From Escherichia coli (GTDB lineage Bacteria; Pseudomonadota; Gammaproteobacteria; Enterobacterales; Enterobacteriaceae): a stretch of DNA of 64,000 bases. A model generated the notes under the pieces. The model was not told the DNA's origin. It did not search any database and saw only the letters and a program-made list of their open reading frames with translations. Location: assembly GCF_003019035.1 (NCBI RefSeq), contig NZ_CP027447.1. One strand, 5' to 3'. This document shows positions 26,078 to 36,958 of this stretch, in pieces (position 1 is the stretch's first letter; each line of letters begins with the position of its first letter). Made by a program: the position numbers and the translations under genes.

Positions 26078-27160
26078 ATGGCTTATTCACCACCGACATT
26101 ATCATCGCTGATTGCCCGTACAGAACAGAATATTGAACAGCGCCTGCCGGGTAGCTGGCCTCAGGCCCGTGAAAAAACGCTGAGTGCCATTGCTTATGCT
26201 CAGGCGGGCCTTGCTGCCGGTTGTCACGAGCATATTTCATGGGTTGGACGGCAGATTATCCCGTCGACAGCAGATGAAGATGAGTTGCTGGAGCACTGCC
26301 GGTTCTGGGGCGTGCGCCGCAAACAGGCGACAGCCGCCAGCGGCCCGCTGACTGTCACCACATCGGCAGCGACCACCATTCCTGCCGGTACACGCTGGCA
26401 GCGTGCTGATGGTGTGGTTTACAGCCTGGCTGATGCCATTGTGATTGACCGTGCAGGAACGACGGAAATTACCGTTACCGCACTGGCTGCCGGTGAAGCA
26501 GGAAATACCGGTGAGAATACCCTTTTAACGTTGATCACCCCGGTTGCCTGTGTTGTTTCCGATGCCATCACTGTAAAAGGGTTTTCCGGTGGGGCTGATA
26601 TTGAGAGTGCAGCGGAGCTGCTGTCACGGCTGGAATATCGTGTCCAGTATCCTCCGTTCGGCGGTAATCAGTTTGATTACGTCCGCTGGGCACGTGAAGT
26701 CAGCGGCGTTACCCGTGCCTGGTGTTTTCCGACATGGAAAGGCGGTGGCACAGTCGGGGTGACGTTTGTTATGGATAACCGGAGCAATATTTTTCCACAA
26801 CCGGCAGACGTGGAACGCGTGGCAGATTATATCGCCGGTCATACTGACCCGATCACCGGTCTGATTGTCGGACAGCCTGACGGTGTAAATGTCACTGTAT
26901 TTGCGCCAAAGGCAAAGCCGGTAAATCCACGGATTTATATATCACCGAAGACAGCCGAACTGAAACAGGCTATTACCCACGCCATTAATACCATGTTTTT
27001 TAATGAGGTGACGCCGGGCGGCGCACTTGCCCCCTCCCGTATTATCCGTGCGGTGGCAGGTGTTACCGGTCTGGATGATTTTGAAGTGCGTTTCCCGACA
27101 GAGATCCAGCGTTCGGAGAATACGGAACTGTTAACACCGGGGACAATTGAATGGCTGTAA
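26078..27160 (+). CDS. W: Baseplate J-like protein (Mu W)
   Basis: 360 aa; synteny. Confidence 0.8.
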   Translation: MAYSPPTLSSLIARTEQNIEQRLPGSWPQAREKTLSAIAYAQAGLAAGCHEHISWVGRQIIPSTADEDELLEHCRFWGVRRKQATAASGPLTVTTSAATTIPAGTRWQRADGVVYSLADAIVIDRAGTTEITVTALAAGEAGNTGENTLLTLITPVACVVSDAITVKGFSGGADIESAAELLSRLEYRVQYPPFGGNQFDYVRWAREVSGVTRAWCFPTWKGGGTVGVTFVMDNRSNIFPQPADVERVADYIAGHTDPITGLIVGQPDGVNVTVFAPKAKPVNPRIYISPKTAELKQAITHAINTMFFNEVTPGGALAPSRIIRAVAGVTGLDDFEVRFPTEIQRSENTELLTPGTIEWL

Positions 27161-27693
27161 CACCCTATCAGACGGCCTTTCTGCAATTACTGCCGTCAGG
27201 GCTTGCCTGGAATAAAAGCCCCGACAGCAAATTATCTGCGCTGGCGCAGGCCATCAGCGACGTGATTGCCACTGCGGCGGATGATGCGCGGCAAATGCTG
27301 CGGGAGCGTTTCCCGTCCACATCCCGCTGGTATCTGGGGGAGTGGGAATCATTTCTGGGGTTGCCGGACTGTACCAGCGAAAACGGCACCTTGTCCGAAC
27401 GCCAGCGGGCTGCCGCGAATAAAATGCGTATGACCGGCAATCTGAGTCGGCGCTTTTATGAATGGCTGGCTGCGCAGTACGGTTTTACCGTCAGGCTGAC
27501 GGATTCCACAGAAGGCCAGTGGGTTACGCAGGTCAATATTTACGGTATTAAAAATTATCGCAACGCAACGGTGCTGGATAATGTCCTGACGCCGTTACGT
27601 GTTTATGAATCGGGTGCGCTGGAATGTTTACTGGAGAAATATAAACCCGCGCATCAGATTTATAAATTTGTTTACCATGACGGAGATAACTAA
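27151..27693 (+). CDS. R: Tail protein (Mu R)
   Basis: 180 aa; synteny. Confidence 0.7.
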   Translation: MAVTPYQTAFLQLLPSGLAWNKSPDSKLSALAQAISDVIATAADDARQMLRERFPSTSRWYLGEWESFLGLPDCTSENGTLSERQRAAANKMRMTGNLSRRFYEWLAAQYGFTVRLTDSTEGQWVTQVNIYGIKNYRNATVLDNVLTPLRVYESGALECLLEKYKPAHQIYKFVYHDGDN

Positions 27694-29048
27694 TGTTTTA
27701 TATTGATAACGACAGCGGCGTAACCGTCATGCCGCCCGTATCCGCCCAGCGTAGTGCTATCGTTCGCTGGTTTTCAGAAGGTGACGGGAATAATGTTATC
27801 ACATGGCCCGGCATGGACTGGTTTAATATTGTTCAGGCGGAGTTATTAAACACGCTGGAAGAAGCTGGTATTCAACCGGATAAAACAAAATTAAACCAGC
27901 TTGCACTGTCCATTAAAGCCATTATGAGCAATAACGCGCTGCTGATAAAAAATAACCTCAGCGAAATTAAAACTGCCGGGGCATCAGCACAGCGTACAGC
28001 ACGTGAAAATCTGGATATCTATGATGCCAGCCTGAACAAAAAAGGACTCGTTCAGCTAACCAGTGCCACTGACAGCCCCAGTGAAACGCTGGCAGCCACC
28101 GCAAAAGCGGTGAAAATTGCGATGGATAATGCCAATGCCCGTCTGGCAAAAGACCGGAACGGAGCAGATATTCCCAATAAGCCGCTGTTTATCCAAAACC
28201 TCGGTTTACAGGAAACGGTAAACAAGGCTGGTAACGCTGTTCAGCGTTCTGGCGATACAATGACCGGAAAACTGAATCTACCACAGACATCTGCATTCGG
28301 CGTTAATACCGATAATGCACTGGGTGGTAATTCCATTACTCTCGGAGATAACGACACCGGTATTAAACAGGGCGGCGATGGTGTCCTTTTATTCTATTTA
28401 AATGGACAACTGATATTTGGGCTTCAACCCACATCCGCTGATTTTTATAAGCGAGTTGCCTACATTCATCAGGGAGTAGCTCCAGATGGGAGTGGCGCAT
28501 TTGCAGACCAGTTAAATAATGCCACCGCGCCTTTTGTTCAGACGCAGTTTGCCTGGAATCCCACTCCTGGCGGTCATTACGTACCGATAGCTAAGGGCTT
28601 GTCCATTCGCAATGGACAGGGGTATCCAGGTGCGGTCAGCTTTGGTTATTTACTAACTGAACAAATGGGATTTCCCATACCATGCATTCATATGCGTGGA
28701 GATTACGGAGCTGATGCTTTGTGGCAGTTTAACCCGAACGATAAATCTTTTATTTCACCGGGGGCTCTTGTTGCGGGTGGCATCCGTTATAACACCGATG
28801 GAAATATATTTGGCGGGTGTTGGGGTTCAAATTTAGCTGATTATCTCAATAGCACATATGTAAGAGACATTCGACTTGGTAGCGCAGAATCAATATCAGC
28901 ATGGCGAGGCCCTGGTTACTGGGATACTTCTGGATATGTTCTGACCGCAGCCGGAAACAGCAACACCGATGAATTTATTGATACATTAACCAGAAGGCCT
29001 ATTCAGAAGTTGATTGGTGGGACATATTATAACGTTGTGAGTATTTGA
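27693..29048 (+). CDS. S: Tail fibre protein S: constant part outside the G segment, variable part inside
   Basis: 451 aa; gix site at 28188-28215 lies within the gene; C-terminus YYNVVSI parallels the S' C-terminus WYNVASV. Confidence 0.8.
28188..28215 (+). repeat. gix recombination site (left) for Gin invertase
   Basis: TTATCCAAAACCTCGGTTTACAGGAAAC; inverted copy at 31023-31048 with one mismatch in the 26 aligned bases. Confidence 0.85.
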
Positions 29049-29049
29049 C

Positions 29050-29577
29050 ATGATGCATTTAAAAAACATTAAAGCAGGGAACCCAAAAACACCTGAACAA
29101 TACCAGTTAACCAAAAAAGCTGGAGTGGTCTGGCTTTATACTGAAGATGGTAAAAACTGGTACGAAGAACAAAAAAACTTTCAACCAGATACTATAAAAA
29201 TTGCATACGATAAAAATAATGTGATTGTTACCGTAAGCAAAGATGTTTCAACGATTAACCCGGAAGGTTTAAGTGTTGTTGAAGTATCCGATATTACGGC
29301 AAATCGTCGCGCAGACAATAACGGAAACTGGATGTTTCTGGATGGTAAAGTAGTAAAGCGGGAATATACAAAACAGGAGCTGCAACAGCAGGCAGAGTTA
29401 CAAAAATCCGCTTTGCTTTCCGAAGCGGAGTCTGTGATTCAACCGCTGGAACGTGCTGTCAGGCTGAATATGGCAACTAATGAGGAACGCGCACGACTGG
29501 AGTCATGGGAACGCTACAGTGTTCTGGTCAGCCGTGTGGATACGGCAAATCCTGAATGGCCACAAAAGCCTGAATAA
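29050..29577 (+). CDS. U: Tail fibre assembly protein U
   Basis: 175 aa; paralogous to the U' ORF on the opposite strand. Confidence 0.8.
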
Positions 29578-29582
29578 AAATT

Positions 29583-29602
29583 AAGGCCCGATAGCGGGCC
29601 TT
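29583..29602. terminator. Hairpin between convergent U and U', possible bidirectional terminator
   Basis: AAGGCCCG-ATAG-CGGGCCTT; A/T-rich flank on the U' side. Confidence 0.5.
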
Positions 29603-29605
29603 GTC

Positions 29606-30139
29606 TCATTCTGGTTGTTCCGGGAATGTTACAGGAAGAACAGAGGTATCTGTGGCATCAACCTGCTGCATGTATAACATCCAGTTAATGAGTCTTTGCC
29701 TGTCTGAATCGCTGATAATTCCCAGCGCAAGCTGTGTTTGCCAGCACTGCGTTTCCTCTCTGGCCTGTCGCAGCAAAATCTGTTTCTGAATTTCAGCCAG
29801 TTGACGTAGTTCTTCATCAGTCCGGGGGCGTTTCATGACCTTGCCATCCTGAAACACCCAGTCACCGAGAATATCGGCCCGGCGATTCGCTGTCGTGTCG
29901 GGTAATTCGACAACGCTCATTCCTTCCGGGTTAATAGACGACACATCTTTTTCAATATAGCGAATGATACCTCTGTCATCGTAAGCGATTTTTAGTGTGT
30001 CTGCCTGAAAGGCTTTTTGTGCCTCATACCAGTTCTGACCATCTTCAGCGTAAAGCCAGATAACACCATGTCTCTTTGTTAACTCATACTGTTCCAGTGT
30101 TTTAGCATTACCCGCTTTTATGTTCTTTAAGTGCATCAT
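29606..30139 (-). CDS. Tail fibre assembly protein U' (silent in this orientation)
   Basis: 177 aa, same N-terminus as U ([11 protein letters not shown]...). Confidence 0.8.
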   Translation of the reverse strand: MMHLKNIKAGNAKTLEQYELTKRHGVIWLYAEDGQNWYEAQKAFQADTLKIAYDDRGIIRYIEKDVSSINPEGMSVVELPDTTANRRADILGDWVFQDGKVMKRPRTDEELRQLAEIQKQILLRQAREETQCWQTQLALGIISDSDRQRLINWMLYMQQVDATDTSVLPVTFPEQPE

Positions 30140-30140
30140 A

Positions 30141-30998
30141 TTAAACGCTCGCTACATTATACCAGGTGCCATTTATATACTTTTGAACGGGTCTGTAATA
30201 AACGCCCGCTATATTATCGGCAGAGTTGGACCCTGTATCCTGAACATTAATACCAGACAATACATGACCTGACGGGCACTTGAAATTCCATGTTTGCCAG
30301 TTGTTCACACCATGATATTGCTGTGAACCAAGACGAACATCTTTTACGTATCGGGAATCAAAGTTACTCCAGTTACTTGGTTGTATGTGACCGTTTACAG
30401 CAAATATCACCGAATTATCTGTATTTCGCTGACTATAGAAATGCCAGCCTGAATCATCACCAAGCTCTGCAACAGTTGGTCTTGATGAAGTGCCCCATAA
30501 ATTAAAACCTACGTTTTTCGTGGAGTTGTTGGAGCTGGATAGCGTGAATTTTTTACCATCCCCGGCCTGAACGTTTTTAAAAGCAATAGCAACTCCATTC
30601 TGAAAGCGGAATACTCGCTGACTATTAGCGTAAACATCCAGAATACCGTCTCCATTCTGTTTAAATCCGGTATCATTATCACCAAGAACAATAGAGCTAC
30701 CACCTAACGCATTCGTCGTACCAACTCCAAGGCTGCCATTAATGACGGCATTAACAAGAATATTTAGTGCATCCCATTTCAGCGTCATCAGGTCTTTTGT
30801 TGTGGTGCTTTGTTTGCTTCTCCATTTGAAATATTCATTGCCGTTGTCGCCTGTTTCAAACCACATGTATGAATCAGTGTCACCATCGGCATCATTTTTA
30901 AATCCAATCTTCGCCCAGTCAGTATTTCGAATCCAGGCAAGGATTGAGTCATTTTCAAAAGTAAGCCCACCGGACAAAGTATCGCCATTTTTTTGCAC
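30141..30998 (-). CDS. Alternative tail fibre variable part S' (promoterless, silent in this orientation)
   Basis: 285-aa ORF from first ATG; real reading frame should run from the gix site. Confidence 0.75.
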   Translation of the reverse strand: MQKNGDTLSGGLTFENDSILAWIRNTDWAKIGFKNDADGDTDSYMWFETGDNGNEYFKWRSKQSTTTKDLMTLKWDALNILVNAVINGSLGVGTTNALGGSSIVLGDNDTGFKQNGDGILDVYANSQRVFRFQNGVAIAFKNVQAGDGKKFTLSSSNNSTKNVGFNLWGTSSRPTVAELGDDSGWHFYSQRNTDNSVIFAVNGHIQPSNWSNFDSRYVKDVRLGSQQYHGVNNWQTWNFKCPSGHVLSGINVQDTGSNSADNIAGVYYRPVQKYINGTWYNVASV

Positions 30999-31022
30999 GG
31001 CATTACCAGCCCTGTTTACCGT

Positions 31023-31048
31023 TTCCTGTAAACCGAGGTTTTAGATAA
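31023..31048 (-). repeat. gix recombination site (right)
   Basis: TTCCTGTAAACCGAGGTTTTAGATAA, inverted relative to 28188-28215. Confidence 0.85.
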
Positions 31049-31102
31049 TGGCCGTTTCCGGCCTGCATGGCATGATTTGCGATTTTGGACGGGAGATTCA
31101 GC

Positions 31103-31684
31103 GTGCTGATTGGCTATGTAAGGGTATCAACAAATGACCAGAATACAGACCTGCAACGAAACGCTCTTGTTTGTGCAGGATGTGAACAAATATTTGAAGA
31201 TAAATTAAGCGGAACAAGGACAGACAGACCTGGATTAAAGCGCGCTTTAAAGCGTCTTCAAAAAGGTGACACACTGGTTGTCTGGAAACTGGATCGCCTC
31301 GGGCGAAGCATGAAACATCTGATTTCTCTCGTCGGAGAACTACGGGAGCGAGGGATTAATTTTCGCAGCCTTACTGACAGTATTGATACGTCATCCCCAA
31401 TGGGGCGTTTTTTCTTCCACGTTATGGGTGCCCTGGCTGAAATGGAACGAGAACTAATCATCGAGCGAACGATGGCTGGACTTGCTGCCGCCAGAAATAA
31501 AGGCCGTATTGGTGGGCGACCACCTAAACTAACCAAAGCGGAATGGGAGCAGGCCGGGCGTTTATTAGCACAAGGAATCCCCCGCAAGCAGGTTGCATTG
31601 ATCTACGATGTGGCCCTGTCAACTCTGTATAAAAAACACCCCGCGAAACGAGCGCATATAGAAAACGACGATCGAATCAATTAA
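31103..31684 (+). CDS. gin: Gin serine DNA invertase
   Basis: Probable GTG start at 31103 (VLIGYVRVSTNDQNTDLQ...), 193 aa; serine recombinase resolvase/invertase family. Confidence 0.9.
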   Translation: MLIGYVRVSTNDQNTDLQRNALVCAGCEQIFEDKLSGTRTDRPGLKRALKRLQKGDTLVVWKLDRLGRSMKHLISLVGELRERGINFRSLTDSIDTSSPMGRFFFHVMGALAEMERELIIERTMAGLAAARNKGRIGGRPPKLTKAEWEQAGRLLAQGIPRKQVALIYDVALSTLYKKHPAKRAHIENDDRIN

Positions 31685-31778
31685 ATCGATCGGTAATACA
31701 GATCGATTATGCCCCAATAACCACACTCAACCCATGATGTTTTTTAAGATAGTGGCGAATTGATGCAAAGGAGGTGAG
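31665..31778 (+). promoter_or_regulatory. com-mom promoter region with three clustered GATC Dam sites
   Basis: GATC at 31670, 31688 and 31701; CCCCAATAACC C-box-like motif; GGAGG ribosome-binding site before com. Confidence 0.65.
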
Positions 31779-31967
31779 ATGAAATCAATTCGCTGTAAAA
31801 ACTGCAACAAACTGTTATTTAAGGCGGATTCCTTTGATCACATTGAAATCAGGTGTCCGCGTTGCAAACGTCACATCATAATGCTGAATGCCTGCGAGCA
31901 TCCCACGGAGAAACATTGTGGGAAAAGAGAAAAAATCACGCATTCTGACGAAACCGTGCGTTATTGA
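31779..31967 (+). CDS. com: Com, zinc-finger translational activator of mom
   Basis: 62 aa with CxxC...CxxC; overlaps the mom reading frame. Confidence 0.85.
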
Positions 31968-32634
31968 GTATGAAGGCCAGATTGTTGGCTATGGTTCAAA
32001 GGAGCTGCGCGTTGAAACCATATCCTGCTGGCTGGCCCGCACAATTATTCAGACAAAGCACTATTCCCGCCGTTTTGTGAATAACTCTTACCTCCACCTG
32101 GGAGTGTTCAGCGGACGCGATCTGGTTGGCGTTCTCCAGTGGGGATATGCCCTTAACCCCAACTCAGGTCGTCGTGTCGTGCTTGAAACGGATAACCGGG
32201 GCTATATGGAGTTGAATCGCATGTGGCTACACGACGACATGCCCCGCAACTCTGAATCACGGGCCATCAGCTACGCGCTGAAAGTTATCAGATTACTGTA
32301 TCCGTCAGTGGAGTGGGTTCAGTCCTTTGCTGACGAACGCTGCGGACGCGCAGGCGTTGTGTATCAGGCGTCGAATTTTGATTTTATTGGCAGCCATGAA
32401 AGCACGTTCTACGAGCTGGATGGTGAGTGGTATCACGAGATAACGATGAACGCAATTAAGCGCGGTGGACAACGAGGCGTGTATTTACGGGCTAATAAAG
32501 AGCGTGCCGTGGTGCACAAATTTAATCAGTATCGCTACATCAGGTTCCTGAACAAGCGAGCAAGGAAGCGACTAAATACTAATCTATTCAGGATCCAACC
32601 ATATCCAAAATCAACTCTGACTAGTATCAAATAA
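31888..32634 (+). CDS. mom: Mom DNA modification protein (anti-restriction adenine modification)
   Basis: 248-aa ORF from first in-frame ATG, overlapping com; real start uncertain. Confidence 0.8.
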
Positions 32635-32769
32635 CTTATTTATTCCTGCTGAAAAGCAGCTCCTCATGGCATAAAATTGTTCACGTGAGTTTAAAATGAC
32701 CAAATGGCAGTACAGTATTTGGTCATTTTATGGGGTGAATTTTAAAGTCAAAACGATGGTAAGGTGCAT

Positions 32770-33105
32770 ATGAAAAAAATACTCATAGCAGTACTACTTT
32801 GCTTTGGTGTTCTTTCTGCTAATCAGGCAATAGCGGCTGTTACCTTAAGCGGTAAGTATCCTGCATGCATATCTGCTAATGAATTCGAGCGATTAAGCTC
32901 AATTTTGCAACACGAAGATCAAGAGGCGTTTGAAGAGATCTTTAAGACATCATGCTTTATGCCTAAAAAGGGGGTTAAAGTTGATAAAGTTGTTTCTATG
33001 GGGTGGACCAGTGGAGTTGCGCATGTCAAAGTTTATGTAAAAGGCAATCTTTACGATCTTTGGACTAACACCGAAAATCTTCAGTCCGAGAAGGCTGGTA
33101 AATAA
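32770..33105 (+). CDS. Small secreted protein of unknown function between mom and the Mu right end
   Basis: ATG at 32770 preceded by AAGGTG; signal peptide MKKILIAVLLCFGVLSANQAIA; mature part ~90 aa with two Cys; AT-rich. Confidence 0.55.
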   Translation: MKKILIAVLLCFGVLSANQAIAAVTLSGKYPACISANEFERLSSILQHEDQEAFEEIFKTSCFMPKKGVKVDKVVSMGWTSGVAHVKVYVKGNLYDLWTNTENLQSEKAGK

Positions 33106-33330
33106 CGCTGTAATCAACGTGTAATCACATCTCCTACCAGCTATCGCCTGATAAAGTTAGGTGATAGCTATTTCAATACTCTCTAGTTTCACTGAAAGCA
33201 CGAAACTTAATACCTCCATTCCAGATTGCTTAATAATCGAGCATTTTTATCTTGAATGTTTTTGCGCGCTTTATCAGCCATACCCTAAGTGATCCCCATG
33301 TAATGAATAAAAAGCAGTAATTAATACTGC

Positions 33331-33407
33331 TGTTTCATTTGAAGCGCGAAAGCTAAAGTTTTCGCATTTATCGTGAAACGCTTTCGCGTTTTTCGTGCGC
33401 CGCTTCA
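33331..33407 (+). repeat. Mu right-end terminal sequence with MuA transposase binding sites (attR)
   Basis: TGTTTCATTTGAAGCGCGAAAG and TTTTCGCATTTATCGTGAAACG repeats; terminus ...CGTGCGCCGCTTCA. Confidence 0.85.
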
Positions 33408-33412
33408 TTCAG
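33408..33412. repeat. Candidate 5-bp target-site duplication copy (TTCAG)
   Basis: First five host bases after the Mu end; the matching copy would flank the off-window left end. Confidence 0.4.
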
Positions 33413-33706
33413 GGTGAACGTCCACTCTTTTTGATCGTCAGACGCTTTCCAGCTACTTGCCAGATCGCCTTCAACGTCGGTTGAGCCTTTATCACCGTCC
33501 GTTTTGTACTGAACCAGTCGCTGATAAGACGGGTAGGTCACTGTCCAGTCGTTATTATCAATTGTCACCGCTGGGTCGAGGGTTTGTGGGTCGGCAGCTT
33601 TACCGATCACCAGCATATCTTTCGGTACGGCGGCGTGCGCAACCGGCATTGTTGTGGCAAGGACGATCGCGAGCAATGTAGGACGAAACAAAATCGATCT
33701 CTTCAT
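33408..33706 (-). pseudogene. ddpA: ddpA 5' fragment (D-Ala-D-Ala dipeptide-binding protein), truncated by the prophage
   Basis: Signal peptide and N-terminal ~99 codons (MKRSILFRPTLLAIV...DQKEWTFTL) run straight into the Mu terminus. Confidence 0.8.
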
Positions 33707-33719
33707 GACAGTTTCCTGA

Positions 33720-34301
33720 TTAACTGGCGTGCTGTGTGCCAGGGGATATAAAACAGGTGAATTGATCAGCGAGTAGTGGGTAACTCGCTGCCTGGGGTAA
33801 TTCGAAGTGCCACCATTCGCTCGGGATACCGACAAAGCCACCGCCAGTCATAATCGCATTCAGCAACAGCCGATTGCGCTGAGCGGCTGGCGGGACGGAA
33901 GGGTGATAAGCATGGGAACGTTCGTGCATTTCATCGAACTCTGCACCCATATCCAGTATGTTCCCGTGCTCATCACGAAGCGTCAGGTCGATCGCTGTGC
34001 CACGGCTGTGATTAGAACCGACCGCCACATCAACAACATATTGCGGGTCTGGGCAGGCTTGCCACAACATCGCCTGTGCTTGTTGTGGGCGATACGCATC
34101 GTAAATCACCAGTTGTAAGCCTGACAGCTGGGCGATACTGATACTTTTCGCCAGCGCAGTAATCGCATCCTTGTGTAACAGACAACGCGCTTGCTGATAA
34201 ATAGCTTTGCCTGTGATGTTATCAGCACAGGCGTATTTCAATTCGATCTCCAGATCAGGGAAGATCACGGCTAAATCAACCAGTTCGGTGGTATCCGACA
34301 T
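33720..34301 (-). CDS. ddpX: D-Ala-D-Ala dipeptidase
   Basis: 193 aa, VanX-like. Confidence 0.9.
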   Translation of the reverse strand: MSDTTELVDLAVIFPDLEIELKYACADNITGKAIYQQARCLLHKDAITALAKSISIAQLSGLQLVIYDAYRPQQAQAMLWQACPDPQYVVDVAVGSNHSRGTAIDLTLRDEHGNILDMGAEFDEMHERSHAYHPSVPPAAQRNRLLLNAIMTGGGFVGIPSEWWHFELPQAASYPLLADQFTCFISPGTQHAS

Positions 34302-34558
34302 AAACGGTTCCTGTATAAGACAAAAATTGCTGCGCTTTCCGCTTATGCAGATCTCATGCCACGCCGGGATAAGCGCCAGAATGCTGGCTTAAAGTTATAT
34401 TTTTTAACTTTTGATCAACATTTGTGCATCGTAATGCAGTTTTGGTGCAAGAGGGGAAGTTAAGGAAGGAATCTCCCGGAATCGTAGCTGAAATCACAGT
34501 ATTTAAGTGACAGTGTCACGTTAAAGGAAAACCCGCGAGTGCGGGCGAGAGGAATTTG

Positions 34559-36958
34559 TCAGATTTTCAGCGGTAACACGCTGCTCATCCAGCCTGGAAT
34601 TTCTTCGGCGGGCAGGGGGCGGGAAAAGAAATATCCCTGAATAACGCGACAGTGGATCTTGCGTAGCATCTCAAATTGCTCTTTGGTTTCGACGCCTTCC
34701 GCCACGACGGTTAAATTAAGGCTTTGCCCAATGCTGGTAATGGCTTCAAGTAAGGCAAGGATGCGTTTTTCGGTCAGACAACGATCGACAAAACTTTTGT
34801 CAATTTTGATTTCCGTTACTGGAAGACTGACTAAGCGGGATAATCCGGAAAAGCCCGTGCCAAAATCATCTACCGATAAACCCACGCCCATATCGCGCAG
34901 GATCTGAATGCGTTTAAAGATTTCGGTATCGTGTTCCATCATCATGCTTTCCGTGATTTCCACCGTCAGCTGGTGGCCGTTAATACCCCAGGCTTGCATT
35001 GCATCAGACACCTGATTAGGCAGCTGATTACTGCGAAAGTGCAGCGCCGACAAGTTCACGGATAACGCCGGGATATGAATATTCTGGCTACGCCATTCTG
35101 CTAACTGACGGCAAGCTTCCGCGATGACCCAGCGTCCAATATTTTCGATTTCACCGATCTCTTCTGCGAGAGGAATAAACCGTGAAGGGGGCACATGACC
35201 ATGCAGGGGATCGTGCCAGCGAGCAAGGGCTTCGATGCCGTACAGTTCACCCGTTTCTGCGAAGATTTGTGGCTGGTAAACCAGTTTCAGTTGGTTATTG
35301 CTAATTGCTTCTTTCAGCGCCGCGCCTAAAACCAAACGCTCTTTTACCATTTCGTTCATCGCCGGGCTGAAGAACTGCCAGCCGTTACCGCCATTTTTGC
35401 GAATAAAATCCATTGCATTGTGAGCAGTGGAGAGCAGGTAATCGCGGTTTTTACCCACGTCGTAGCTGATGCCAATGCTCAAGGTGAGCGGGAATGGTTT
35501 ATCGTCAATCATTATCGGCTTGCTGACCACATTCCGTAGCTCATCGGCGATCTGCGTAATGTTACTGACGTCGTTTTCCAGGCTCACGAGGACAAACTGC
35601 GTACCTTCGATACGACAGAGATATTGATCCGGTTTGAGTTTTTCACGAAAGCGATTGACCACTTCCAGCAATGCCTGATCGGCCCACGCATAGCCAAGGC
35701 TATCAATCACATCCTGAATATGGTCAACACCGATGAGATACACCACCGGAGAGACGGCTTTGTCGACCAGGTCATCGAGGTAATTGTGCAGGTTATTGCG
35801 ATTTGGCAGACCGGTCATCGGATCAAATTGGATGAGTTGTTCAATATGCTGACGGCTTTTTTCCTGTTCCAGCGCCAGCGCGGCCATATGCTGGCTAATA
35901 TCTGCCACGCGTTCGATAAAGGCGCTGGTTTCTGCTCCTGACGAGGTTTTAATTTGCAGGATCCCCGCCGGCGCACCATCACGCTGACGAATGGTCGCTG
36001 ACCAGCTTTGCGCATTTTGAACTTCTGCACCGTGCGAAGATGACGCCCAGTGTATCGGCATCCCGTTGCGCAGCGCGAACAGCGAAACATGCGATTCGTT
36101 GAGTACAGATTCGATGTTACGACAAATGATTTCCCCCATTTCATGAAATGGCGGGCTGCTGCACATGGCGGCGAGAATATTGCCTTCAAGCTGGCGGATT
36201 TGCCGTTCTTCGGTGATATCCGAGAAGGTCATTACCAGGTTCTGCAGATGCGCGAGCACGTCATAAACCGGGCTGATAGAGGCTTTAATCCAGATTTTTT
36301 CACCGGTGCGCGTCAACAGCAGAAATTCATCCTGATCGCGGGCGGTTTTCCATAGCAACTGTTGTAAACGAATGCGGTTATCGGCAGGGAATTCAGGAAT
36401 GTTCAGGAGTGTATCGGGCTGCATACCGCTGGCTTCGCTAATGCAGTAACCAAACATTTCGGTAAATGCGCGATTGCACTGCACAATATGGCGTTCCGGA
36501 TCGAGGACAATCACCGGTCGGTCGAGATGGTCAACAGCAATAATCAATTGTCGGGTCTGTTCTTTTTGCGCCATTTCTACGCTGGCATCCCGTACCAGCG
36601 CCAGGTAATAAACTTTCCCCTCGGCGCTCACTTTCGATAGCGCAAAACGGGTCCAGATTTTACTGCCGTCTTTTTTCTCCAGCTGCAGCTCCCGACTCAT
36701 CCCCTCGACGCGCGCTTTACCGCCTTCACGGTTATGACGAATGTATTCAGGATGCGCAGGACGCAAATCCCGCGGAATCAGCATATCAATGTTATTGCCA
36801 ATGACTTCTTCACGTTTGTACCCCCAGAGCTTCTCTGCGGCGGGGTTGAAAAACATCACTTCATCATTTTCGTTAATTAACACCGCGCCCATCATATTTT
36901 GCTCAAGGGCGGGGAAAAAAATGCCATCGGCGGCATTATCCGCATCGGTTAGCTTCAT
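34559..36958 (-). CDS. dosP: Oxygen-sensing c-di-GMP phosphodiesterase (haem-PAS, GGDEF, EAL)
   Basis: 799 aa from MKLTDADN...; EAL-domain signature in the C-terminal part. Confidence 0.9.
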   Translation of the reverse strand: MKLTDADNAADGIFFPALEQNMMGAVLINENDEVMFFNPAAEKLWGYKREEVIGNNIDMLIPRDLRPAHPEYIRHNREGGKARVEGMSRELQLEKKDGSKIWTRFALSKVSAEGKVYYLALVRDASVEMAQKEQTRQLIIAVDHLDRPVIVLDPERHIVQCNRAFTEMFGYCISEASGMQPDTLLNIPEFPADNRIRLQQLLWKTARDQDEFLLLTRTGEKIWIKASISPVYDVLAHLQNLVMTFSDITEERQIRQLEGNILAAMCSSPPFHEMGEIICRNIESVLNESHVSLFALRNGMPIHWASSSHGAEVQNAQSWSATIRQRDGAPAGILQIKTSSGAETSAFIERVADISQHMAALALEQEKSRQHIEQLIQFDPMTGLPNRNNLHNYLDDLVDKAVSPVVYLIGVDHIQDVIDSLGYAWADQALLEVVNRFREKLKPDQYLCRIEGTQFVLVSLENDVSNITQIADELRNVVSKPIMIDDKPFPLTLSIGISYDVGKNRDYLLSTAHNAMDFIRKNGGNGWQFFSPAMNEMVKERLVLGAALKEAISNNQLKLVYQPQIFAETGELYGIEALARWHDPLHGHVPPSRFIPLAEEIGEIENIGRWVIAEACRQLAEWRSQNIHIPALSVNLSALHFRSNQLPNQVSDAMQAWGINGHQLTVEITESMMMEHDTEIFKRIQILRDMGVGLSVDDFGTGFSGLSRLVSLPVTEIKIDKSFVDRCLTEKRILALLEAITSIGQSLNLTVVAEGVETKEQFEMLRKIHCRVIQGYFFSRPLPAEEIPGWMSSVLPLKI

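Follow-up and report, generated by a model that had tools for sequence, protein, structure and literature searches.

The window, by which we mean the whole 64-kb stretch of Escherichia coli chromosomal DNA analysed, contains a pair of phage-type crossover sites in inverted orientation, with two sets of tail-fibre and assembly genes between them and an invertase gene to their right. The features are as follows.

27693-29048, + strand: S, full-length tail-fibre gene (451 aa), made up of Sc and Sv
27693-28188, + strand: Sc, constant N-terminal part of S, outside the invertible segment
28189-28214, + strand: gixL, left crossover site, TTATCCAAAACCTCGGTTTACAGGAA, an exact match to the Mu gix
28215-29048, + strand: Sv, the variable C-terminus that S has in the captured orientation, with a tip of a type that is not Mu's
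29050-29577, + strand: U, tail-fibre assembly protein (175 aa; Pfam Caudo_TAP, 6.7e-37; PHROG 136)
29583-29602, no strand assigned: GC-rich hairpin of 8 pairs (6 G-C) separating the convergent genes U and U'
29606-30139, - strand: U', alternative tail-fibre assembly protein (177 aa; Pfam Caudo_TAP, 3e-28), silent in this orientation
30141-31022, - strand: S'v, alternative variable fibre part, open up to gixR (Pfam Gp34_trimer), silent here
31023-31048, - strand: gixR, right crossover site, TTATCTAAAACCTCGGTTTACAGGAA, with one mismatch
31103-31684, + strand: gin, serine DNA invertase (193 aa), with a GTG start as in Mu and the catalytic Ser9 in MLIGYVRVS
31103-31225, no strand assigned: stretch at the 5' end of gin where the recombinational enhancer (sis, Fis-binding) is expected, identical to Mu at 123 of 123 positions
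31779-31967, + strand: com (Pfam Zn_ribbon_Com), a Mu right-end gene
31888-32634, + strand: mom (Pfam Mom), a Mu right-end gene

The element that carries these genes is, on its sequence, a Mu-family prophage (Muvirus, the transposable phage Mu family) inserted in the chromosomal gene ddpA; its left end lies beyond the window, and the assignment uses the part inside. Window positions 1-25000 have 98% nucleotide identity to Mu, D108 and PhiR68_1. On the other side, the presence of com and mom (31779-32634, 97% nucleotide identity to Mu) fixes the element as Mu-type, and a right end that is 98.5% identical to that of Mu (33274-33407) terminates in ..CGCTTCA at the host junction, with ddpA resuming directly afterwards at 33408. 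No prophage sits at this point of ddpA in any of 5,426 complete E. coli genomes, and the best match to the G region among them, in A21, reaches just 93.9%.

The earlier note had described two inverted gix sites with one mismatch over 26 bases, bounding a segment of about 2.86 kb at 28188-31048. Both sites were found, and the gix-to-gix span is indeed 2,860 bp, but the segment starts one base later, at 28189. gixL consists of two 12-bp half-sites flanking a central TC (28201-28202) and lies within the S reading frame, where it codes for ..IQNLGLQE... The sites share the TC core and agree at 25 of 26 bases, the exception being a C to T change at position 6 of the outer half-site of gixR (on the + strand, window position 31043 reads A where Mu has G). 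When the 64 kb was searched for gix-like sites at up to three mismatches, gixL and gixR were the only two hits, and 100 shuffles gave 0. No third site was seen of the kind that a multi-site system such as p15B Min or a shufflon would have. Inverted homology continues beyond gix, covering 79 nt at 82% identity (28189-28267 against 30970-31048). The variant base of gixR creates a TAA in the S' frame. This was considered as a block to S' and rejected, since the codon sits on the outer side of the crossover point and remains beside gin after inversion, and so never joins Sc.

Between the gix sites, the variable end of the Sc|Sv fusion and then U occupy the + strand, followed by U' and S'v on the - strand. 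Sc has 97-98% nucleotide identity to Mu and to the Yersinia pestis Mu-like phage vB_YpM_3 as far as gixL, with a Pfam Phage_fiber_2 domain at aa 113-153 and membership in PHROG 1833 (tail fibre). The start of S overlaps the stop of gp48 (TAATG), so that S and U stand in line with the late tail genes, as had been claimed for them. The Sv tip (252 aa) is 99.6% identical to a silent copy in the Yersinia phage vB_YpM_Tongde and 76.5% identical to that of vB_YpM_3/23, falling to about 30% for Salmonella phage fibres. Outside this prophage, all known carriers of the tip are Mu-like phages that were isolated on Y. pestis. The 60-aa-shorter S was also considered as a damaging deletion, a possibility rejected because the difference is in frame and vB_YpM_Tongde has the same short form.

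The opposite strand had been said to lack a promoter for S'v and U', and this agrees with our scan of 27000-33500, in which sigma-70-like sites numbered 8 against 11.6 expected by chance; at the gixR end of the - strand no convincing sigma-70-like site was seen. S'v is without its own start codon at the gix end, and will look to annotators like a start-less 'fragment'. Inversion in silico joins it in frame to Sc, giving a 467-aa S' with U' as the next gene. The hairpin at 29583-29602 was the top terminator-like site in the scan, with a T-run after it on the - strand and an A-run before it on the + strand, and is likely to end transcription in the middle of G.

gin adjoins the segment on the right, as previously stated, with its GTG 54 nt from gixR, a spacing shared with Mu. 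The protein is 100% identical to Mu Gin, contains the Pfam domains Resolvase (6.7e-50) and HTH_7 (2.4e-17), and matches the PDB entries 3UJ3 and 4M6F ('DNA-invertase') over its full length (E = 8.6e-126). An inactivating change in gin, which the earlier note had named as part of what would speak against its reading, is absent. The Fis-dependent enhancer of Mu is presumably located in the first 123 nt of gin; a recombinational enhancer within the invertase gene is reportedly the subject, by its title, of a 1985 paper by Kahmann and colleagues (among the references of PMC10434027). A loose Fis consensus, GNNYRNNWNNYRNNC, finds two sites 37 bp apart in Mu and in the window alike, although the spacing is not as expected and the match is not diagnostic.

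The segment is identified as a G segment because it combines two inverted gix sites, identical cores, a Gin that is 100% that of Mu, and an in-frame product of the flip. We put the probability at about 0.93 that the locus works as a Gin/gix DNA-inversion switch and represents the G segment of a Mu-family prophage. In the mechanism proposed, Gin dimers would bind both inverted gix sites and, with Fis on the enhancer near the start of gin, would cleave the DNA at the central TC, after which rotation and religation would flip the 2.8 kb. The flip would select Sv or S'v for in-frame fusion to Sc, and also U or U' as the next gene in the late operon; this choice of fibre and assembly protein would then fix the receptor specificity of virions after induction. 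The assembled state gives Sc a non-Mu tip, of the Y. pestis Mu-like phage type, followed by a Mu-U-like chaperone; a Mu-S/P2-H-like tip and a U'-like chaperone lie on the silent strand. For Mu itself, it is established how the segment inverts and what this does to host range (PMC3575834, PMC4406740, PMC10434027), host range changing with orientation (PMC4406740). For this prophage, a working enhancer, switching in the strain itself and the receptors used are inferred, and the very different fibre tips (Sv and S'v are mutually 29% identical) suggest that orientation would change host range here as well. Since lysogens keep the late operon off and any culture should contain both orientations, the one assembled is a snapshot and not an expression state, and annotators and those doing comparative work should treat the direction of the 2.8 kb in an assembly as such.

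The orientation had been labelled 'S-U-expressing'. By position the label is right, and U does match Mu U, but the Sv tip is not a homologue of Mu Sv. Whether the orientation would be better called the opposite of Mu G(+), in that the Mu-S-like gene is on the silent strand and Mu S is not expressed, seems to us an even call. It is S'v, on the - strand, that has 47% amino acid identity to Mu Sv over its full length, its first 314 nt being 92% identical to the beginning of Mu Sv with the orientation reversed, and the S'v tip reaches about 72% identity with gpH of P2 and of Wphi (61% with P1). Sv, on the + strand, has no nucleotide match to Mu Sv or Mu S'v, and its likeness to Mu is confined to the last 67 aa, which are nearer to Mu S'v (52%) than to Mu Sv (39%). 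The assembly proteins point the other way: U is 80% identical to Mu U and 57% to Mu U' (89% against 35% in the C-terminal half), and U' is 66% identical to Mu U' and 51% to Mu U. Since the cassette is a mosaic, neither Mu label fits the whole of it, and the positional statement remains correct. The question is one of naming, not of mechanism. It does have one consequence, that with the Mu-Sv/P2-H-like part on the silent strand, the Mu G(+) host range for E. coli K-12 is not transferable.

The segment could also have the anatomy of G and have lost inversion, through the gixR mismatch, a weak gin promoter or some other defect, which would leave the + strand fibre set as the sole product. Between gixR and the start of gin, the stretch where the gin promoter must sit, there are 13 differences from Mu besides the gixR variant base. 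In SfMu, moreover, lysates made by induction and by infection did not differ in host range, and among the causes proposed for poor inversion there was a 1-bp change in one of the repeats (PMC4406740). Against this, the gixR change lies six bases off the core, the core dinucleotides match, Gin itself is unaltered, and relatives that jointly represent both orientations (the prophages of E. coli Esc30 and Esc31, and the phages vB_YpM_Tongde and vB_YpM_3) share the gixR variant together with very similar upstream sequence; A21 has the variant too. The Esc30 and Esc31 loci agree fully in their flanks (2,117 and 3,126 nt) and differ solely in that the 2,981 nt between these flanks are exact reverse complements of each other; the breakpoints fall within gix, and the gixR variant keeps its place between the two forms. 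Likewise, the flipped window and vB_YpM_Tongde are collinear through the two junctions (97.8% and 93.2%), and their gix pairs are the same. Both states of the segment are thus seen among relatives, each comparison being a clean natural example of the flip, and we hold a loss of inversion here to be very improbable.

That another invertase system (P1 C/Cin, e14 P/Pin, p15B Min, or an invertible fibre segment of P2-like phages) has been taken for Mu G has a negligible chance of being right, for although the U-U'-S'v-invertase block recurs at about 80% nucleotide identity in the P2-like P88 and P884B11 and in a Citrobacter phage, such an origin is refuted by the identity of Gin to Mu Gin, the exact Mu gix at gixL, and the Mu flanks (gp48 and Sc on the left, com-mom and the Mu right end on the right).

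With the locus read as a working Gin/gix switch, its mechanism is of little significance, being already known from textbooks, with the invertase unchanged. The fibre genes, as compared here, are a mosaic unlike Mu's own in an otherwise ordinary, intact-looking G segment. Relative to Mu the pairing is reversed, a Mu-U-type chaperone accompanying a non-Mu tip and a U'-type chaperone accompanying a tip of the Mu-S/P2-H type; the 5' regions of U and U' are inverted and 73-74% identical. If this pairing is functional, the C-terminal type of the chaperone (U or U') would be uncoupled from the type of tip, and recombination within G (e.g. through the U/U' 5' regions) could make new combinations. The expressed tip might also bind a receptor outside the usual LPS-core set. 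We regard this as speculative and rather unlikely; were it true, G would be a generator of new host ranges, beyond a two-state switch. In practical terms, the locus marks a probably inducible Mu-family prophage with two fibre sets unlike those of Mu, whose host range for that reason cannot be read from the Mu G(+)/G(-) labels.

The closest known system by backbone is the G segment of Mu (NC_000929, G boundaries 31966-35025), which has the same order of gp48, Sc|gixL, Sv, U, U', S'v, gixR, gin, com and mom. gixL, the Gin protein and the start of gin are identical in the two, and the backbone is about 98% identical. The differences are that G measures 2,860 bp here and 3,084 bp in Mu, that gixR has its one outer-half-site change, that Sv is unrelated at the nucleotide level to Mu Sv, with the Mu-Sv-like sequence on the opposite strand and paired with the U'-like chaperone, that U and U' stand at only 80% and 66% identity to their counterparts, and that the prophage has an additional 640 nt with a small secreted-protein ORF in the interval between mom and the right end.

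Among phage records, the closest G cassettes are those of the Y. pestis Mu-like phages vB_YpM_Tongde (MT591577) and vB_YpM_3/23 (MT374852/6; PMC10434027). vB_YpM_Tongde has 99.6% identity in the Sv tip and 79% in the S'v tip, and shares both gixL and gixR, T variant included; its segment is inverted relative to this one, the P2-H-like part being the one joined to Sc. vB_YpM_3 has 91% nucleotide identity over 92% of the region, and differs in an S that is 60 aa longer and a more divergent Sv tip. The Mu-like prophages of E. coli Esc30, BLSE177-2012, Esc31 and A21 share the cassette type (coverage 88-92%, identity 91-94%) as well as the gixR variant, with other insertion sites (ldtD; beside pyrF) and a longer S (511 aa), and the gix of Esc30/31 has a G at one position of the inner half-site (GGTTTGCAGGAA). 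The P1 and e14 switches also control the C-termini of tail fibres. Hin/hix (Salmonella), Cin/cix (P1 C segment) and Pin (e14) are Din-family switches, each with a Fis/enhancer-dependent serine invertase and two inverted 26-bp sites (PMC3798978). In contrast to these, the invertase here is Gin itself and not a paralogue, and whereas the Hin switch acts on a promoter, the present one acts on a fused ORF.

The two gix sites form the core of an inverted repeat pair (28189-28267 and 30970-31048; 79 nt, 82% by repeat search), as read on both arms in alignment with bacteriophage Mu (NC_000929). A pattern search of the whole 64 kb, allowing up to three mismatches, found exactly two gix matches in the window and none in 100 shuffles of the sequence used as a control. 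These are the same two sites that the alignment gave, and the inverted pair with one mismatch in 26 bases described in the earlier note is correct. Both share the central dinucleotide TC. The gix-to-gix length is 2,860 bp, in agreement with the "about 2.86 kb" claimed for a segment at 28188-31048, although that start is one base early.

Features of the region
27151-27693, + strand: gp48, open reading frame
27693-29048, + strand: S, open reading frame of 451 aa with gixL within its frame, after codon 165; tail fibre (Pfam, PHROGs)
28189-28214, + strand: gixL, TTATCCAAAACCTCGGTTTACAGGAA, identical to Mu
29050-29577, + strand: U, 175 aa, Caudo_TAP assembly protein (Pfam, PHROGs)
29606-30139, - strand: U', 177 aa, Caudo_TAP assembly protein (Pfam, PHROGs)
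30141-31022, - strand: S'v, frame open up to gixR, with no start of its own at that end
31023-31048, - strand: gixR, TTATCTAAAACCTCGGTTTACAGGAA, one base different from gixL
31103-31684, + strand: gin, Resolvase and HTH_7 domains (Pfam)
31779-31967, + strand: com, Com (Pfam, PHROGs)
31888-32634, + strand: mom, Mom (Pfam, PHROGs)

This arrangement bears out the claims that S and U read on the + strand and that gin lies directly to the right of the segment. S' and U' had been described as opposite-strand genes without a promoter; both frames are on the - strand, and among the sigma-70-like sites of the region, whose count is below chance, none points to S'v-U' having a promoter of its own. A GC-rich hairpin (29583-29602) separates the convergent U and U'. 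These two genes also form long imperfect inverted repeats inside the segment (28995-29360 and 29829-30194; one of 217 nt at 74%, the other of 122 nt at 73%), through which homologous recombination might reshuffle the chaperone halves.

The switch appears intact. Gin (193 aa, with a GTG start like that of Mu) is 100% identical to Mu Gin, including Ser9, and its full length is covered by the matches to 3UJ3 and 4M6F, both solved structures of Gin. The first 123 nt of gin do not differ from Mu, and the Fis-dependent enhancer of Mu is expected to lie here; Kahmann et al. 1985 (listed in PMC10434027) by its title locates the enhancer within the invertase gene. Ahead of this perfectly conserved coding start, differences from Mu cluster: the gixR variant base (31043) and 13 more at 31049-31102. 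The gin promoter must be positioned between gixR and the gin start. When the segment is inverted in silico between the central dinucleotides, S'v joins Sc in frame to give a protein of 467 aa, with U' as the next gene. The sole difference in gixR introduces a TAA when read in the S' frame. It belongs to the outer half-site, on the far side of the crossover, and therefore remains beside gin and never becomes part of S'.

Complete E. coli genomes were searched twice, with the native region and the in-silico inverted region as queries. The results were mirror images: the native form matched Esc30 and BLSE177-2012 and the inverted form matched Esc31, each with the same statistics (88% coverage, 90.9% identity, 6,271 bits). 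Between the Esc30 and Esc31 loci, flanks of 2,117 and 3,126 nt are identical while the 2,981 nt between them are exactly reverse-complemented (2118-5098 of L003, the Esc30 locus, against L004, that of Esc31); the breakpoints lie within gix, and the outer half-sites keep their C/T difference in place. Both strains carry the same Mu-like prophage in ldtD, the inversion being the sole difference at this locus, and their chromosomes are nearly equal in length (5,230,305 and 5,230,280 bp); that of BLSE177-2012, which matched the native query with the same statistics as Esc30, is 5,230,277 bp. As an independent case, the genome of virions of the Yersinia phage vB_YpM_Tongde runs collinear over both junctions (97.8% and 93.2%) with the window once flipped, and it shares both the gixL and the gixR variant of the window. 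Given the exact inversion between Esc30 and Esc31 and the same variant in opposite orientation in Tongde, this variant is compatible with inversion. Mutation in the repeat was raised as a concern for SfMu (PMC4406740); for the gixR variant, the inversion seen in relatives answers it.

The first 25,000 nt of the window share ~98% identity with Mu, D108 and PhiR68_1, beginning at Mu coordinate ~3.7 kb, so that neither the left end nor the 5-bp target duplication is within the window. Positions 33274-33407 match the Mu right end at 98.5% (last bases ..GCGCCGCTTCA), and E. coli chromosome follows from 33408, within ddpA, then ddpX and dosP (99-100% identity). The window thus holds most of a Mu-family prophage, inserted in ddpA and interrupting it. 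Some 640 nt not in Mu (32635-33273) separate mom from the conserved right end, with an open reading frame (32770-33105, + strand, 111 aa) whose N-terminus is signal-peptide-like and which has no Pfam or PHROG match. An unrelated 148-aa signal-peptide frame occupies the same slot in Esc30 and vB_YpM_3, so the slot appears to be a place for cargo genes ('morons').

A switch of this kind is already known. Gin dimers bind gix and form a Fis-activated synaptic tetramer, in which cleavage of both strands leaves a phosphoserine link; a 180-degree rotation of one half and religation follow (PMC3575834; PMC3798978); the segment in the window would be flipped by this established mechanism. Orientation selects S/U or S'/U' and hence host range (PMC4406740, PMC10434027). 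Mu lysates reportedly contain both types when induced and mainly one when grown by infection (PMC4406740), so whichever orientation a lysogen assembly shows is a snapshot. The segment itself is confirmed, and its interpretation as a switch is supported at the level of sequence, with a caveat on naming.

That caveat arises because the cassette is a mosaic relative to Mu: "S-U-expressing" holds by position, but must not be taken to mean the E. coli K-12 specificity of Mu G(+). U is closer to Mu U (80% identity; 89% in the C-terminal half) than to Mu U' (57%; 35% in the C-terminal half), and U' is 66% identical to Mu U' and 51% to Mu U. The silent S'v is 47% identical to Mu Sv over its full length, its first 314 nt matching the start of Mu Sv, reversed, at 92%, and its tip is ~72% identical to P2 gpH. 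The expressed Sv has no nucleotide similarity to Mu Sv or Mu S'v; its tip is matched at 99.6% by the silent copy of Tongde, at 76.5% by the Y. pestis phages vB_YpM_3/23, and at ~30% by some Salmonella phage fibres. S in the window lacks 180 nt (60 aa) found in the 511-aa S of A21, Esc30 and vB_YpM_3, the gap sitting just past the gix-proximal conserved stretch (window 28276-28307 against 977-1188 of locus L002, and against locus L005); Tongde has the short form, of the same length and in frame. The P2-like phages P88 and P884B11 and Citrobacter phage Shae_phiSM have the U-U'-S'v-invertase block in common with the window (29055-31458) at ~80% nucleotide identity, and this sharing indicates that invertible fibre cassettes have been exchanged between Mu-like and P2-like phages.
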